The notes under the pieces were generated by a model that made no database searches, was not told the origin of the DNA, and was given only the letters and a program-made list of their open reading frames with translations. Both the position numbers and the translations under genes were made by a program. A stretch of DNA of 63,773 nucleotides, the filler included, from Globobulimina sp. (lineage: Eukaryota), in assembly GCA_003354225.1 (NCBI GenBank). It is 30 parts of 30 records of this genome, joined end to end, with 100 filler letters (N's around TTAATTAATTAA, not from the genome) between each part and the next. Parts side by side here need not be neighbours in the genome. Positions count along the whole stretch, not along the records: positions 36,206 to 38,234 come from PIVH01009617.1; 29 more parts are not named here. One strand, written 5' to 3'. Below are positions 17,422 to 42,592 of this stretch, one piece after another. Position 1 is the stretch's first letter. Each line of letters begins with the position of its first letter.

Positions 17422-19070
17422 ATGCTGTCGTCTCGGAAAGCCGAAACAGAAACAGTAGCATTGATAAAACCAGATGTTACAATCGAAGACAAGTACAAAG
17501 ATAACAAACAAGACGAATTTGGGAGAATTAACAGTGGATTGGAACTCATCATTGTTTATTCATTTGTCATCTTCATATTTTTCAATGGATTTAAGAAAAT
17601 CAAATTATTATCGGATGAATTATTATCTCAATCTCTGGCAAGAAACTTAAAACAAGGCTGGATCTTGAATCGAAAGATAGATTTATCAGATATTCAATGG
17701 AGAGCATACAGGGAAAACTTTGTCATTTATTCAGTCTTTGCAACGTTTTTTATCATTGTTTCGAAACTATTGAGATATATTTTGCATTGGTATTACAAAC
17801 AGCAATTAATGTCAAATGCAAATAAATACCATATTCTATGCACCATCTCTTATATTTATAATATCTTTCATATCCTCGTTGGTTGCATATTTATTTTATA
17901 CTTACACGGTTCTTCATGCATTGTCATGATATTATTCATGTCCATAAACTACGGAATTGCAAAGTTGTCGCATTCCTCAAAATATTGCATTATCATAACA
18001 TGGATATATAACGTAATTATGGCATTTATATCATTCCGATTTGACAAGCTGTTCGCTGCCAAATTTCTATTCTCAAAATCAAAAATCGATTGGAATCAAT
18101 CGTACAGATTTGGCATTTTGCGATGTATCAGTTTTAATATGGATTTGTATTATTTGTCAACCAAACAAAATATCTACAAATCAAAGTATAATGAGACATA
18201 TACAGAGCTTATAAATGTGGCTGATTTTTCATTGATTAATTACTTTGCATATTTACTGTACTGTCCCTTGGAATTAATGGGACCAATCATCAGTTTCCAC
18301 GAATGGATAATTCAAATTAAATTAAAGTTTTTATGCCAACGTAATGCTGAATTATCACATAAGAACATCGGAATATATTTGTTGCGCTTATTTATTTTAT
18401 GGATATTGCATGAAATATTGTTACATTATTATTATACACATTATATTTCACGCTTTGGATATCCGCAAAATACCAATAAAAGAGGCGATTATCTGATAAT
18501 ATTGGCATTGTTCAGTTACATTCATTTAAAAATGATATGGTTTAAATTTTCTATCATATGGAAATGTGCCCGGTTCTGGGCATTGTGTGATGGCATTGTG
18601 ACTGTCGAAAATATGAAGAGATGCGTATCAAATACTAGCTCCATTGTTGAATTCTGGAAGAATTGGCATTCTTCATTCAATTTATGGAACATCAGATATT
18701 TATATATTCCATTGGGTGGAAACAAAAGACATAGAATTTTAAACACATTCAGTGTTTTTATGTTTGTGTTTCTATGGCATGGCGATTTCCATTTTTCTTT
18801 ATTATTTTGGAGTTTATTGATGTGCATTGCCATAATTCCGGAGGTGTTGGTAAAACAAATGTGTTTGAAAAACAATAAGATTAAAAATAATAAATATGTT
18901 TATGCCGCAGCAGCTGCTGTCAATGTGATAATATTAATTATTGCGAATAATATTGGATTTGGCCAAGGTTTACATGATACACTCACTGCATTCGACGCTT
19001 TTTTTGTGCAGAAACCTTGGATTGGAATACTGACATTTTTGTGTTGTTATTTGAGTCTGATTATCGTAAT
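17422..19070 (+). CDS. MBOAT acyltransferase, GUP1/HHAT-like
   Basis: KIDLSDIQWRAYR, LRCISFNMD, YCPLELMGPIISF, ENMKRCVSN, FWKNWHSSFNLWNIRYLYIPLGG, FVFLWHG (catalytic His). Confidence 0.95.
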
Positions 19071-36205: not shown

Positions 36206-36217
36206 TGGAGTGCTCAT
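36206..36217 (-). CDS. Start of a divergent virus-like ORF (MSTP...), truncated by the contig end
   Basis: Minus strand TATATACAAAGAAT-ATG mirrors the start context of the 36741 ORF and has the AGTCAAT box 72 nt upstream. Confidence 0.55.
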
Positions 36218-36279
36218 ATTTCTTTGTATATAATATAAATACTATTTAAATTTTAAAATAATTTGCCCATAAAAATATT

Positions 36280-36310
36280 ATATTGACTTAAAAATTATAT
36301 GAGTCAATAT
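36280..36310. promoter_or_regulatory. Pair of inverted AGTCAAT boxes (putative bidirectional promoter)
   Basis: ATATTGACT-N13-AGTCAATAT; each half lies 63-72 nt from an ATG on its own strand. Confidence 0.65.
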
Positions 36311-36363
36311 TAAAGCGATATAAAATTAAATTACGCATATAAATATTATATATTAATATACAA

Positions 36364-36633
36364 ATGAATATAAGCGAATACATAATAGCAGAGATTGATT
36401 ATCCAATTTTCATGAATGATTGTGAGGAAATTGATATTATGAGTTATATAAACCATAGATATGGGTTTGGAATTAGACAATATACGATTAGTCAGATTTA
36501 CAATTTTTGTAATGATTATGAAATTAAATTATTTATTAGAATGCGTAATGGATATAATTTAAGAATATCATATCATAGAATGTGTGAAATATTATATGAT
36601 CTATTAAATCATACCGAATATTTTTCAGGATAG
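36364..36633 (+). CDS. Hypothetical protein, virus-like
   Basis: Intronless 89-aa ORF with GAGTCAAT at -63. Confidence 0.7.
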   Translation: MNISEYIIAEIDYPIFMNDCEEIDIMSYINHRYGFGIRQYTISQIYNFCNDYEIKLFIRMRNGYNLRISYHRMCEILYDLLNHTEYFSG

Positions 36634-36668
36634 ATATTTTTATTTAATGAAAATAATATATGACGAAA

Positions 36669-36677
36669 TGAGTCAAT
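36669..36677 (+). promoter_or_regulatory. TGAGTCAAT upstream box
   Basis: GAGTCAAT begins 71 nt before ATG 36741. Confidence 0.6.
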
Positions 36678-36740
36678 TTATTTTATTTATTCATTAATGC
36701 CGCAAAATTTATATATTTGCTTAATATATACAAAAGAATA

Positions 36741-37046
36741 ATGGCTGAAACACCAACAAACTTCACTTTAAAAAAATATAACGGCAAATGTGTTTTTTAT
36801 AAATCTAATGATCCCGTCATAATTAATGGAATTTCATATGGATATTTAAACCCAAATGTTTATTCAATTAATGACGTAATACAAATTGCGATTGATAATA
36901 ACATACACGGCTTCTCCAGAATCGGAGTAGGCTGCGGCAAATGGCGCTTTCAAAAAGCATCTCGCTCGTATAATGAATTACATACCGCAATTGAAACAAA
37001 TACAAAATCTTATCCTGGCCTCGCTTTTTATTTATTGGACTATTAA
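36741..37046 (+). CDS. Hypothetical protein, virus-like
   Basis: Intronless 101-aa ORF starting MAETPTNF. Confidence 0.72.
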   Translation: MAETPTNFTLKKYNGKCVFYKSNDPVIINGISYGYLNPNVYSINDVIQIAIDNNIHGFSRIGVGCGKWRFQKASRSYNELHTAIETNTKSYPGLAFYLLDY

Positions 37047-37098
37047 ATATCATAAATAACCATCAAAAATAAAATATAAAATATATAATTTATGATTC

Positions 37099-37106
37099 GA
37101 GTCAAT
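37099..37106 (+). promoter_or_regulatory. GAGTCAAT upstream box
   Basis: 67 nt before ATG 37166. Confidence 0.6.
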
Positions 37107-37165
37107 TATATATTATTACCAGAATAAACCATAATAAAATTTATTTGTATATCATATATAAAGAT

Positions 37166-37792
37166 ATGTTCTCCTCTAATAATACCCAAAGCGATTTATC
37201 AAAAGATGCCGATACCCTCATTAATTCATTTAATTGCGAAGATGGTGATATAATTGACATCTGCTTTTTTTGCTGTGAAACCGATATATTATCAAATATA
37301 AGATGTAATAATTGCGACGAAGGCAAAAATGTATGTGAATATTGTTATAATTTACTTAAAAACGATAAAATTAAAGAGTTTAAAAAAAATATAAATAATG
37401 ATGATTTTGAAATTGATGATGATGATTGTATGAATGATATCCTATATGACTGTGATTTTATTTTTTATGATAATGAATATATGTGCTTTTGCAATGTAAA
37501 TTCATGTAATAGTTGCGATGAAAAAGGGTATTGGGAAGATTTTCATTGCTGCGAAGAATGCAATGAGACATTTTGTAGTGGCTGTGTGGCTCATGTTCGA
37601 GATTCGACATATTGTGTTGGCTGCTTAGATAAAAAACGTACAATTGGCGTCTGCTGTTATTGCGATATGACGAATGGCGATCCGTGTGCATGTGATGATG
37701 AAGATGAAGATTGCGACTGTGATGATGTATATGATGAAGATATAGCAATATTTGAGATTGATGGGCAATATATGTGTAATAATTGTTTTTAA
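37166..37792 (+). CDS. Cys/Asp-rich multi-CxxC protein, virus-like
   Basis: About nine CxxC pairs (CFFC, CNNC, CEYC, CNSC, CEEC, CSGC, CVGC, CCYC, CNNC), intronless. Confidence 0.78.
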   Translation: MFSSNNTQSDLSKDADTLINSFNCEDGDIIDICFFCCETDILSNIRCNNCDEGKNVCEYCYNLLKNDKIKEFKKNINNDDFEIDDDDCMNDILYDCDFIFYDNEYMCFCNVNSCNSCDEKGYWEDFHCCEECNETFCSGCVAHVRDSTYCVGCLDKKRTIGVCCYCDMTNGDPCACDDEDEDCDCDDVYDEDIAIFEIDGQYMCNNCF

Positions 37793-37811
37793 TTCCGGAT
37801 GAATGATGATG

Positions 37812-37843
37812 ATTTTTAATTTAATTACGCTTAAATTAAAAAT
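37812..37843. terminator. Perfect AT-rich hairpin between convergent ORFs
   Basis: ATTTTTAATTTAA-TTACGC-TTAAATTAAAAAT: 13-bp stem, 6-nt loop, no U-tract or GC stem. Confidence 0.65.
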
Positions 37844-37860
37844 GTTATATAACGTATAAT

Positions 37861-38135
37861 TTAACTTCCTAAATCAAAGTCAATATCGAAGGTTAATTTA
37901 CCACCGATCGCGGTTACATCTGCATCTCCCTCGGAATACATTTCATACCAGTGATCCGACGAATTAACTTTGATAGTAGTGAAGCCGGTTCGAATTGATT
38001 GTGTAGTAAATATGTTCTTTAGAGCGCGTGTTGTTCCAATGGGGAGAACTTCAACGGTCATCGGGTTGTTAAAGTCGGCCGGGTCACCGCCAACTCCACG
38101 TCCATCAATATGAAATGCATACTGCTGGCGTCTAG
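37861..38135 (-). CDS. C-terminal part of a beta-rich protein, possibly structural
   Basis: YAFHIDGRG...GGKLTFDIDFDLGS; 5' end unclear. Confidence 0.55.
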
Positions 38136-38334
38136 CTGAGAACAAAAAAATCTCTGCGAACACATCGATTCAATGCCTAACAGCTCATAAAAGTTATAAG
38201 GGGCCCATTATCTGTGCACATGCCTGGGTGCAGGNNNNNNNNNNNNNNNNNNNNNNNNNNNNNNNNNNNNNNNNNNNNTTAATTAATTAANNNNNNNNNN
38301 NNNNNNNNNNNNNNNNNNNNNNNNNNNNNNNNNN

Positions 38335-39266
38335 CAATATCATGATTTGATCTGCCAACCATAACAAATGCTGTGTGCCCAGTATTGCGCATTTTGCTGT
38401 TTTGCAGGGTCAACATAACTCCATAGAAAGTGTCTTGATTTGTTGATTTGTTATCTTTAATTATAATGAATTCATCCAAGTTATGAGGATCTCTAACTTT
38501 GTGAAATAATGAAATATCACATTTACGCAAGCCATACGTATGGTTTTCAGCTTTAAATGGATGGAATACTTCTCCTATCCTCATACCTGTAATAGCCATA
38601 ACATTGACAGCCACTAAACTCATACGAATATGCATACAAAAAGGATAAAATATAATCTCTTCACGAATAATCAAATAATGTTTGGAAGCAATGATAAAAG
38701 CAGAGGATGATTTATCTGCTTTGCAATATAAAAATTTACGAGTCACAATTTTGTTGAATCGAATTAAATGATCTTTAACGAATGGAATTGCTGTATCATT
38801 GGGATCAGATTTATTTTGTCGTTTACCGTAATCCACTAAGTTCATCAATGATGGATTAGTTGACCAGGAAGTTGGTGTCATGGCCAATTTATTAAAATGA
38901 TCGACTGCACATAATTTGTATCTGACTGTGTTCCATTTATTAACTTTCTTACGTACCCACAGACAGTCTATCATCCAAACCATTAAAAATATGTCTTTTG
39001 TAGGAAATTGAAGGAATTCAGTTTTCGCAATGTTTAAACGCGTCATCGTGTTGCAAAATTCAAAGAAATTTGCAGTGTAAGTATCATCTGATGATAATTT
39101 GATGCCACGTGACATCATAGTCTCTAAACCCAAAGCATGAGTGGGTAGTAATGACCATATATTGTGTGAATAATTTGAGTTTCGTGTACGACCTAAATTT
39201 GTATTGAAATCTAACTAAATGTACATGTTACATTTGTATTTATAATGTGATGTGAATAACAATCAT
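38335..39266 (-). CDS. Tyrosine recombinase, 3' truncated; predicted intron 39215-39260
   Basis: N-terminal helical domain, MAITGMRIGEV (catalytic Arg), LTLQNSK (catalytic Lys region). Confidence 0.85.
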
Positions 39267-40363
39267 AAAAATGAAATGTCGGGATAGATGAAAGGAGTTG
39301 GTCTGCTATCAAAATCTGTTAAATTCCTTGATTTACAATGCAATAAAAACTTAGCTATATCAAAGCGAGACAAATCATCCGCATACAAATTTTCTGATGT
39401 TTTAATATAATTAATTTTAACCCTTAACTTATATTCAAAACAAAACCATACTGTCCAACGAATACAATCCATTAAAAACATATCATTCGTATTCTTGGAG
39501 ATAAAAACAGCTTCACAGTGTTGATTATCACACCGTAGATTTACGTCAATGTTCTCTTGAAAGAAATCCTTATAAGTCCATAGCGCTGCGACTATCGCTA
39601 ACGCCTCAAAATGAGCAATATGCTGTTCTTGAGTATAAACAATAGATTTGTCGGAGTCTAAGTATTTTGTGTATATTGTCATAAATTCAATTGGCACGGT
39701 GTCAAACGACCAATGACCCTTAAAATACGCACCAATCCCTGGCTGCCAGTTCGGTTTCTCTCCATTCGTGGCACCATCAGTATATATATTGACCTTTGGT
39801 CTATCTCCAAAGCCAACAACATCATACACATTAACTCGATCACATATATACATATATTTAATCCATAAATTTGCATCTTTGACTTCGTGATCACAAAAAT
39901 ACATAAAAGTAATATCATCGCCATAACTTCTTTTATGTGCCGTTAATTTCATTCTCATCCTACGCAAGAAAGCCGTACCCGGCCACATCAATGCTGCCAT
40001 CCAAGTTAGTGTACCCATTAATGATTCGAACTTATCACTCATCAGCATTCTGCACGAAACAATAATGATTAATATTAATAGACATTTTTTCTTCTTATTA
40101 GGCCCAGGACCGACTGTCATGTCCGTGGAGTCATAAATTAATCCACAAACCTCCATAATCCACGAAACTAGCTTTCGTTTGGCCTCTTTCTCAATGTATC
40201 CACATAAATGTAGAAATTGAAAAAATTTCTCCATCAAAAATGACTCTCTCTTTCTATCTGAGAATGGAAACGATTTAATGAAACCAATGTGGTCGTCAAT
40301 ATATACAAGATTCTCAATACGTTCATTGTATAATAATAACGGTTGTATCCAATGCTTGAACGC
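39263..40363 (-). CDS. Reverse transcriptase/RNase H (DIRS1-type), 5' truncated
   Basis: NLVYIDDHIG (YxDD) in frame upstream of the tracked ORF; ESLMGTLTW; RNase H IYTDG, HIAHFEALAI, CDN, ENLYADDLSR. Confidence 0.93.
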   Translation of the reverse strand, partial: AFKHWIQPLLLYNERIENLVYIDDHIGFIKSFPFSDRKRESFLMEKFFQFLHLCGYIEKEAKRKLVSWIMEVCGLIYDSTDMTVGPGPNKKKKCLLILIIIVSCRMLMSDKFESLMGTLTWMAALMWPGTAFLRRMRMKLTAHKRSYGDDITFMYFCDHEVKDANLWIKYMYICDRVNVYDVVGFGDRPKVNIYTDGATNGEKPNWQPGIGAYFKGHWSFDTVPIEFMTIYTKYLDSDKSIVYTQEQHIAHFEALAIVAALWTYKDFFQENIDVNLRCDNQHCEAVFISKNTNDMFLMDCIRWTVWFCFEYKLRVKINYIKTSENLYADDLSRFDIAKFLLHCKSRNLTDFDSRPTPFIYPDISFL

Positions 40364-40463: not shown

Positions 40464-42469
40464 CAATAAATTGTACTGAATTATCAATTCTTCATAAGCT
40501 ACGATTTCCGTCGTGCCGAGATAAGACAAATTCGATATTGTTCCTAACACTTCGACCAAAAATTCCTGTCTTTGTTGGCAGGTTTTCGCCATTCCTAATA
40601 ATTGATGCAAATGCCTTTTAAATTTAATTTTAATGTCTTCGTTTAAGGAACATGATAAGTTATGGATCAATTTCATTAGCAACGGGTCAAATGTTCGATG
40701 GACCCTTTTAATTAACAATGATAGATATTCATTATTGTCTGCATTACATATAACATCTATCGCTGCCTCGCATGTTGACATATTTATAGCTAAAGCAATA
40801 ATTTCCGACGGTATCAATCTATCTTCAAAATGGATAATCATTTCAATAATAATTACAACGGCGTCAGTATAACAAATTTGTGATTTAAACTCGTCGACAA
40901 TGCTTAGATTATATAAACATTTGACTGCGAATTCTTGTGTATGTTCCATATGAAGACACCGAACCAACCAACCTAACAAACCACATTCGCAAATTTGTTG
41001 TTTACATTTCGTATCAAATGATAAATTGAATAATAACCGAATTACTGACAGTTGGATATCTGCTGATTCTCTGGACTCTGTTTTAGCGGACGCACAGTCA
41101 ATATCATTGCTTATGATATTGTATAAAATATTAATTATTCCCAGGTCGACAAATTTATTTTTATTTTTTGCGAATAATGATAACTTTTTCGAAAATGTCA
41201 ACAGTAAAATAATTAATTCATCCAACCACGTTCTGATCATATTCCTTCGTTGCAATGTCCTGATGATATATTTGACGATTCCTAATTGGACCATTTTGGT
41301 TTCAATTTCTAAGTCTTCTGCTAAATTCAATAAAACATAGAAGCAAATGTATAATAATTTTTCTTGTCTGTGTAGAAATAGTATAAATTTCATTTCTGTG
41401 TCATCCAAATTGTCTGCGTTTTTTCTTTCATTCATTGTCAATTCATATCGTTTGTTTTCATGGCTTATTATTTGCATTGTAGTTGCTCCAATTTTTGAAT
41501 TGATTAAAATTGGATGCAACTCGCTAAAATTTGAAAAACAAAAAAATATTTCTAAGATATTGCTGACGAGTTCGTTGTTTTTCTTCCTGTCTTCCTGCAA
41601 CATTCTACCTAACGCACCAATTAACACTTTATTATCTACAAATTGCGATAAATAATCGGGTTCCTATCTATTTCAAAAAGGATAGAAAATATACATGTAT
41701 TATGACGCAGATATTTATATATTTTAACTTGAACTAATTGTAATATATGATACGTTGCAAATATTTTGATTTTTGCATCGTTTTCATACAGATTTTCGAT
41801 GTATTTATCCAATTTATTGATATTGCCTTTTTCTTTTGGCATATTCTTTTCCATTTCCTTTTCAATTTTTAATTGTTGTTTCATTAATTTTTTCATTTTT
41901 TTTTTCTCTTTTTTCTCCAGTTTTTTCTGTTCTTCTTCCTGTGTTTTTTCTTCTTTTTCTTTTTTTAATTGCTGCTCTTGTTGTTTTACTTCGTTTTCTT
42001 TTTCTTTTCTTAATTTTTCTTGATTCGTTCTTATTCTTTCTTGTTTGAGTTGTTTTTCTTTTTCTAATCTTAAATTTATTTCACTGTCTAATTTTATTTG
42101 TAATTGCTTCAATTGTTCATTGTCTCCAACCTCCGCATTATTATCATTATTCTCGTCTTGTTGTTTCTGGCTAGTCTCTGTTTTAATGAGTCTTTGTTTT
42201 AATTGATTAAGTAATGAGATTATATGTTCTTGTTTTGAGGCAGGTACATATTTACATTGATCAATAATACCTTTTGCTACTTTTGCAACATTTGATTTTG
42301 GATTAAATCTTTTAATTTTTATTTTTTTGTGCGAATATTGTTTTTCCGTAAGGTGTGAATTTCCAGCATCATCTACATATTCTATCTGCATTGCATAGTT
42401 GACAGTAATCATTGGTTCAATGGGGTGTAACTCAATAATTCCTAGTTTTACTTTTTTCTTTTTGCCCAT
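40464..42469 (-). CDS. KIFAP3: Kinesin-associated protein 3 (kinesin-2/IFT), 3' truncated, 1 intron
   Basis: KVKLGIIELHP...VNY, LDKYIENLYE, LIGALGRMLQEDRKK, IFFCFSNFSELH, LLNLAED, RLLFNLSFD, EVLGTISNL. Confidence 0.95.
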
Positions 42470-42592
42470 TGCACTTCGTTGCTTTTTCTGTTNNNNNNNN
42501 NNNNNNNNNNNNNNNNNNNNNNNNNNNNNNNNNNNNTTAATTAATTAANNNNNNNNNNNNNNNNNNNNNNNNNNNNNNNNNNNNNNNNNNNN

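Follow-up and report, generated by a model that had tools for sequence, protein, structure and literature searches.

In a 2-kb contig of the Globobulimina sp. assembly GCA_003354225.1 (record PIVH01009617.1, positions 36206 to 38234 of the window, i.e., of the whole stretch of 63,773 nucleotides (nt) that was analysed), four gene starts, here called P0 to P3, are preceded by the same two sequence words at a nearly constant distance from each other. The distal box, AGTCAAT (in its longer form, RAGTCAAT), is always found on the coding strand, 47-50 nt upstream of a TATA-like proximal box, ATATA[C/T]AAA, whose end falls 0-6 nt before the ATG. We propose, with a probability of about 0.5, that these boxes constitute a bipartite promoter, with one copy ahead of each gene of a compact, intron-less and extremely AT-rich fragment, and that this fragment is most likely part of a low-abundance, non-host element. 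In such a model, the distal box would be the docking site for a sequence-specific factor or a polymerase subunit, A/T hairpins would mark the 3′ ends of the genes, and the element would be an unknown large DNA virus or a virus-associated episome. The window (1-63773) is a pseudo-molecule in which 30 unrelated, unplaced contigs of 2027-2030 bases are arranged by descending size and joined by N44-TTAATTAATTAA-N44 linkers; any feature that extends across one of its linkers must be regarded as an artefact.

The distal box had been noticed in a previous reading of the DNA letters (hereafter, the sequence-only reading), which placed its starts 63, 71 and 67 nt upstream of three ATGs (36364, 36741 and 37166) and that of a minus-strand copy 72 nt upstream of a divergent ATG (36217). 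All of these positions and distances proved to be correct: GAGTCAAT starts at 36301, 36670 and 37099, and the minus-strand copy, AAGTCAAT, runs from 36289 to 36282. RAGTCAAT is found five times in the contig, when a mean of 0.148 copies would be expected, and none of 5000 dinucleotide shuffles reached five; the enrichment is also observed when the AT-rich part of the contig is considered by itself (four copies vs. 0.106 expected, with 0 of 5000 shuffles reaching four). No enrichment is seen when the window is taken as a whole (8 copies vs. 7.18 expected), and the three copies in the other 29 contigs are all located within long open reading frames (ORFs). The four intergenic copies all face their downstream ATG, 63-72 nt away. 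The remaining copy of the contig, which lies within the coding sequence of P4 on the strand opposite to that gene and has no proximal box downstream, is probably not a promoter. Additionally, AGTCAAT was not found within 110 nt upstream of any of the 36 other crude ORF starts in the window.

A second box, TATA(C)AAA, had also been described just upstream of the four ATGs. Such a box is indeed present in all four cases, but its form is ATATA[C/T]AAA, as it reads ATATACAAA three times and ATATATAAA before 37166. Similarly, the contexts of the ATGs at 36217 and 36741, which had been termed nearly identical, read TATATACAAAGAAATATG and TATATACAAAAGAATAATG once their letters are corrected. When the four upstream regions are aligned, AGTCAAT and ATATA[C/T]AAA appear as two invariant blocks, with box identities of 100% and 89-100%, respectively, while the pairwise identity outside them stays at the random level (0.29-0.53 in the spacer and 0.23-0.57 upstream, vs. 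0.38 expected). Because flanks and spacers are only randomly alike, the boxes are to be considered islands of conservation and not leftovers of a recent duplication. A fixed position before the ATG had been claimed as well, and it does hold within 63-72 nt, but the gap between both boxes (47, 48, 47 and 50 nt) varies less than the distance to the ATG. Under random placement of the distal box in the available spacer, a box-to-box range of ≤3 nt would be observed with a chance of 1.4e-4, and the range of 63-72 nt to the ATG with a chance of 1.6e-3.

The position of the proximal box imposes some restrictions on its role. P2 contains no Met after the first one, which requires its transcript to start upstream of 36741, and the proximal box located 6 nt before this gene therefore cannot act as a TATA box at -30. 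Two options may be envisaged for the start of transcription. It might occur at the TATA-like proximal box, which would lead to very short leaders, as in the TATA-type initiators of African swine fever virus (ASFV) and poxviruses, or it might occur a few tens of nt after the distal box, in which case the proximal box would be part of the leader. By eye, each spacer (about 14% guanine plus cytosine (GC)) contains one small G/C patch that ends in CA, 16-27 nt after the distal box; these patches could be the start site or a third element. The three plus-strand promoters also have TATGA 3-11 nt ahead of the distal box (36295-36300, 36659-36664 and 37091-37096), which the minus-strand one lacks; this recurrence may be due to chance in A/T-rich DNA.

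The boxes are also found at other loci. Contigs are available from three sequencing runs of one sample (X1, X2 and X3, none of them RNA), which is probably the source sample of the assembly. For instance, 36341-36364, which comprises the P1 proximal box and its 5′ flank, recurs before two different other ORF starts (in X1 and X2, with loose ends behind 36360 and 36364). A loose end before 37128 reads C-AAGTCAAT, continues with 21 unrelated letters and then joins the 31 nt 37128-37158, which places the distal box at the exact P3 offset over a different spacer. Another X1 contig also contains the 30-mer 36665-36694, with the P2 distal box in it, and reaches it 36 letters after a P2-like 3′ end; this joint (37048 to 36665) points to the existence of paralogous copies. 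The hairpin stretch 37812-37838 recurs in other contigs too, with a word depth of 25.5 vs. about 5 beside it, and one X2 contig has it immediately adjacent to the proximal-promoter stretch. Therefore, from the recurrence of boxes and hairpin at these loci, the two-box grammar is used beyond this contig.

The same runs give information on the integrity of the contig. X1 pieces 1 and 2 cover 36220-37208 without any difference, X2 covers small parts only and X3 none of the contig, which is not proof of absence. Regarding the right end, 37796-37804 is not bridged by 31 nt in any listed run piece, 38127-38234 has no cover, and the piece that covers P4 stops matching the window sequence to the left of 37796 and to the right of 38126. 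The link of P4 to P1-P3 passes through the repeated hairpin, which no listed run contig bridges. P4 may thus not truly adjoin P3, and the right end (37796-38234) is doubtful.

In any case, the invariance of the boxes, their fixed spacing, their gene-ward orientation, the random spacers between them and their reuse at other loci all support the shared promoter grammar that had been proposed in the sequence-only reading, and we infer that both boxes very probably have a promoter function. The proposal that four ORFs share the motif is valid for P1, P2 and P3, but the fourth, at 36217, is a putative gene of which the contig contains just four codons. The coordinates of the features are collected in Table 1.

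Table 1. Features of the contig that carries the two boxes, followed by the ORF pairs of two neighbouring contigs of the window (window coordinates; bp, base pairs; aa, amino acids)
Feature	Position	Strand	Remarks
Contig with the whole finding	36206-38234		2029 bp; linkers N44-TTAATTAATTAA-N44 on either side
P0, possible divergent gene start	36206-36217	-	4 codons before the contig end
P1	36364-36633	+	89-aa orphan ORF
P2	36741-37046	+	101-aa orphan ORF, no internal Met
P3	37166-37792	+	208-aa orphan ORF; Cys-rich, with many CxxC pairs, and also rich in acidic residues
P4	37861-38169	-	102-codon stop-to-stop frame, convergent with P3; 44% GC; no ATG before about codon 38
P0 distal box, AAGTCAAT	36282-36289	-	50 nt before its proximal box
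P1 distal box, GAGTCAAT	36301-36308	+	47 nt before its proximal box
P2 distal box, GAGTCAAT	36670-36677	+	48 nt before its proximal box
P3 distal box, GAGTCAAT	37099-37106	+	47 nt before its proximal box
Fifth copy, AAGTCAAT	37877-37884	+	within the minus-strand P4 coding sequence; without proximal box downstream
P0 proximal box, ATATACAAA	36223-36231	-	5 nt to ATG 36217
P1 proximal box, ATATACAAA	36356-36364	+	last A is the A of the ATG
P2 proximal box, ATATACAAA	36726-36734	+	6 nt to ATG 36741
P3 proximal box, ATATATAAA	37154-37162	+	3 nt to ATG 37166
G/C patches	36325-36340, 36696-36706, 37118-37133	+	CGCATA, CGCAAA, ACCATA
G/C patch	36262-36272	-	GGCAAA
Perfect A/T hairpin, candidate 3′-end signal	37812-37843		13 bp, 6-nt loop; flanked by the stop codons of the convergent P3 and P4
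ORF pair	38336-39214 with 39266-40363	-
ORF pair	40464-41663 with 41639-42490	-

The contig has a GC content of 29% overall and of 13-21% in its four intergenic spacers, which range from 68 to 146 nt; the divergent spacer between P0 and P1 is 146 nt long, and the tandem spacers P1-P2 and P2-P3, 107 and 119 nt, respectively. The genes P1 to P4 are far smaller and more densely packed than those of the other contigs of the window. P4 is probably a 3′ fragment. A sequence that resembles a splice acceptor, made up of a T-rich run and a subsequent CAG, precedes its frame on the minus strand (at about 38130-38146).

Hairpins are frequent between these genes and some of them involve the distal box. 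The folding energy of the one located between P3 and P4 is usual for its composition (z = -0.84). The tandem-spacer hairpins are of 11-12 bp: the P2 distal box is found in the loop of an imperfect one (36645-36689, 83% paired), and the P3 distal box overlaps the 3′ arm of a perfect one of 11 bp (37080-37114). In the divergent spacer, the P1 distal box and 36280-36288 form a 9-bp inverted repeat (ATATTGACT / AGTCAATAT), so that the two divergent boxes pair together.

As a consequence of this arrangement, AGTCAAT might be part of the 3′-end or termination hairpin of the upstream gene instead of a promoter element, since both tandem-spacer boxes are in the loop or 3′ arm of A/T hairpins and the divergent boxes pair over 9 bp. 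We consider this improbable: the clear convergent hairpin at 37812-37843 lacks the box, the box lies at different distances from the upstream stop (37 and 53 nt) but keeps its distance to the proximal box, and the divergent spacer, without any upstream gene end, has one copy per direction, each equally spaced from the proximal box of its own gene, an arrangement that favours a promoter over a terminator. Even less probable is that the boxes are the remains of a promoter or repeat unit that was duplicated recently, or an artefact of the assembly, without any selected function. Paralogous copies and repeated modules do exist in the sample, as indicated by the joint of 37048 to 36665 and by the shared 24-31-mers, but the sequences between and around the boxes have only random identity (0.23-0.57 vs. 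0.38) while the boxes are invariant, and the error-free match of the two X1 pieces to 36220-37208 speaks against an artefact. Similarly, we find it very hard to accept that a basic leucine zipper (bZIP) factor of the host reads the distal box as an AP-1/GCN4-type site (TGAGTCA), a possibility raised in the sequence-only reading. TGAGTCA is present in the P1 and P2 copies, where ATGAGTCAAT is found twice, but the P3 copy has CGAGTCA and the P0 copy TAAGTCA (the copies being CGAGTCAAT and TAAGTCAAT), so the palindromic heptamer that every functional copy would be expected to contain is present in two of four. Furthermore, the invariant AGTCAAT extends into AAT, 3 nt past the AP-1 site, and the box of the contig is strictly oriented, whereas a palindromic site, TGA(G/C)TCA, need not be.

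A cellular promoter module deserves more attention, and we consider it possible, although doubtful. It would precede tandem, small, lineage-specific genes of an AT-rich and intron-poor protist, either the main organism or another eukaryote, and a nuclear factor would read AGTCAAT (the complement, ATTGACT, holds the W-box core TTGACY, together with a CAAT word), with an A/T-rich initiator beside the ATG. In Giardia, for instance, minimal promoters consist of an A/T initiator at the ATG and a CAAT-like box about 45 nt upstream. The W-box recognised by WRKY factors is TTGAC(C/T), and its core, in the form TTGACT, is found in the complement of all five copies; this is a resemblance only, as the word of the contig has a fixed orientation and spacing that are atypical of W-boxes. 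The cellular explanation would also agree with the long intron-less ORFs of similar GC in other contigs, with the presence of TATATAAAG just before the ATG of the ORF start at 17422 and with the lack of any viral gene on the contig. By contrast, it does not easily account for the 36 other ORF starts of the window, with AGTCAAT upstream of none and the proximal box at one of them, nor for genes that are far smaller and denser than those of the other contigs, nor for the lack of any homologue of the four products among 1.84 or 5.8 billion proteins.

Indeed, extensive homology searches gave little information on these products, and no relative of the contig genes was found among about 15 billion public proteins. 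Pfam and PHROGs assigned no family to the four ORFs, the two PHROG matches obtained having E values of only 0.17-0.18, and a word-indexed search of 5.8 billion proteins, limited to near lengths, returned nothing for P1, P2 or P3. When P4 was compared with 1.84 billion representatives using HMMER, two matches were obtained (E of 2.7e-4 and 9e-4), the first of which involves residues 16-51, where P4 weakly resembles, repeat by repeat and with about 35% identity, the FN3 repeats of a protein of 1830 aa; naming P4 after this likeness was dropped, as the match was too weak. Scans of IMG/VR proteins found no relatives of P1, P2, P3 or P4, and there were none of P3 and P4 in metagenome contigs and none of P2 in prokaryote genome contigs. 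Structure was of limited help. The single-sequence AlphaFold2 models were unusable, with a predicted local distance difference test (pLDDT) of 38.6 for P4 and 36.1 for P3. The ESM Atlas gave nothing for P3 (0.83); P2 scored 0.92 against three unnamed clusters of proteins of 84-91 aa (one was recorded from a haptophyte) and 0.89 against clusters with a PAN domain. These scores are to be taken as a lead only, and Pfam detected no PAN domain in P2. No tRNAs were found, and the sole Rfam match was a sub-threshold snoR28 (E 0.25).

The layout of the contig is reminiscent of some viral systems. Mimiviridae have an early promoter, AAAATTGA, and hairpin 3′-end signals (Suhre 2005 and Byrne 2009, as cited in PMC6163669 and PMC5294985). 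As far as the available text of these two sources describes them, they share with the contig a short invariant word at a preferred distance from the ATG, A/T spacers of about 100-150 nt, A/T palindromes after the genes and many small orphans. Under the hairpin rule of Mimiviridae, an A/T-rich palindrome follows the stop codon at the 3′ end of the transcript; the palindromes at 37812-37843 and in both tandem spacers are candidate signals of this type. The analogy with Mimivirus, already drawn in the sequence-only reading, is therefore good for the layout but not for the word: AAAATTGA is absent from both strands of the contig, AAATTGA occurs three times, never in promoter orientation, and AGTCAAT shares ATTGA with the Mimivirus word only through its complement, ATTGACT, on the non-coding strand. 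The contig also differs in having a second box at a fixed 47-50 nt and no Mimiviridae gene. Other giant-virus words, namely, AAAAATGA, AAATATTT and an A/T-flanked TCTA, have no match on the contig, and TAAATG is found once, inside P3 on the other strand.

According to the available text of PMC5294985, the bipartite late and intermediate promoters of ASFV and poxviruses have TATATA at -1 to +5 and TATTT at -15 to -11. The contig resembles them in having two parts and a TATA-like word at or next to the start codon in all four cases, which cannot be a -30 TATA box. It differs from them in that the upstream element is about 50 nt away instead of about 10-15 and contains G/C, while theirs is A/T-only; no partner was found at the 10-20 nt expected of these late promoters, the sole conserved one being 47-50 nt away. 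Yeast cytoplasmic linear plasmids have promoters with the upstream conserved sequence ATNTGA and stem-loop terminators. These compact, virus-like cytoplasmic elements of about 25% GC are similar to the contig in the presence of a short conserved upstream word per gene and of 3′ hairpins, but ATNTGA has no fixed position on the contig (16 scattered matches), no plasmid polymerase genes are found on it and the other contigs of the window give no sign of a yeast as the main organism. A bacterial sigma-70 promoter (TTGACA/TATAAT) was also considered and rejected: TTGACT is on the strand opposite to the ORFs and, by eye, there is no TATAAT-like hexamer 16-18 nt further on at P2 and P3.

Words of this kind do not seem to have been described in viruses. 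A literature search by motif letters found no such viral promoter word among the matches listed, which were in primer, single-nucleotide polymorphism (SNP) and WRKY contexts, and TCAAT, ATTGAC and AGTCA are absent from the available text of a review on promoters of nucleocytoplasmic large DNA viruses (PMC5294985). The pair of motifs is real, has a solid statistical basis considering its size, and is apparently undescribed.

Returning to the proposal of a bipartite promoter in a low-abundance non-host element, the chances that the origin is non-host, either viral or virus-associated, appear to be roughly even, or slightly better. This origin is favoured by the density of small orphan genes, the extreme A/T content of the spacers, the repeated module of promoter and hairpin and the absence of the grammar from 36 other ORF starts. 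More tentatively, and with lower odds, the contig could come from an unsampled lineage of very AT-rich large DNA virus or from a virus-dependent episome of the transpoviron type, whose own machinery would read AGTCAAT at about -50 together with an ATATA[C/T]AAA initiator, the repeated A/T hairpins being 3′-end signals.

Several considerations weigh against this proposal. There are just four instances of the promoter in the window, one of them preceding a gene with only four visible codons, and the copies in the run contigs are to be taken as further loci and not as independent data, because the runs are probably from the assembled sample. The promoter is deduced from the DNA letters and its start site is a predicted one; moreover, the distal box is in or at a hairpin in both tandem spacers and may there have a 3′-end role. 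As far as can be told from the available text of PMC5294985, the gap of 47-50 nt is longer than in the bipartite promoters of poxviruses and ASFV. Regarding the origin, the searches in Pfam, PHROGs, proteins, IMG/VR and metagenomes revealed no viral hallmark gene and no homologue for any ORF of the contig, which carries none of the markers of Nucleocytoviricota, virophages or Polinton-like viruses (major capsid, PolB, A32 ATPase, VLTF3, etc.). A complete scan of IMG/VR with GAGTCAAT-N45-50-TATATACAAA found 18 stretches with one match each, two of them in giant-virus metagenome-assembled genomes, and none of the 18 is enriched in AGTCAAT or combines enrichment with the right geometry; when AGTCAAT-N44-52-ATATACAAA was used instead, at least 118 stretches had one match each, with no enriched locus among the matches listed. 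Additionally, the host itself is intron-poor, with long intron-less ORFs in other contigs, so compactness alone is no mark of a virus, and the GC of P1-P3 (0.24-0.33) is within the range of the ORFs of other contigs (0.27-0.48). Thus, the designation of the contig as virus-like, made in the sequence-only reading, goes beyond what 2 kb with neither hallmark nor homologue, and with ORFs of ordinary composition, can establish.

The rest of the window offers some context for these results. The other contigs share with the one described here nothing above chance 14-mers. They mostly contain long, uninterrupted intron-less ORFs with 27-49% GC, and one of them resembles bacterial DNA; we consider that they probably represent an AT-rich, intron-poor eukaryote with some admixture. 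The contig at 42593-44621 has ORFs of 122 and 141 aa (the second with 55% GC) that we take to resemble the bacterial ribosomal protein L25/Ctc and peptidyl-tRNA hydrolase, and it may come from a bacterial contaminant or symbiont. In the contigs at 38335-40363 and 40464-42492, two long minus-strand ORFs each abut or overlap in different frames (Table 1); they could be retroelement-like, or parts of a gene that is broken by a frameshift or by a very short intron.

Fixed-position promoter words are among the few features by which pieces of unknown compact genomes can be recognised and binned when every gene in them is an orphan. With four copies on 2 kb and glimpses of further ones in the same sample, the pair described here represents a well-supported lead, not a discovery. 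If the pair of boxes marks many contigs of the source assembly, it would provide a handle on a whole hidden genome, viral or cellular, on its gene starts and on its expression classes.

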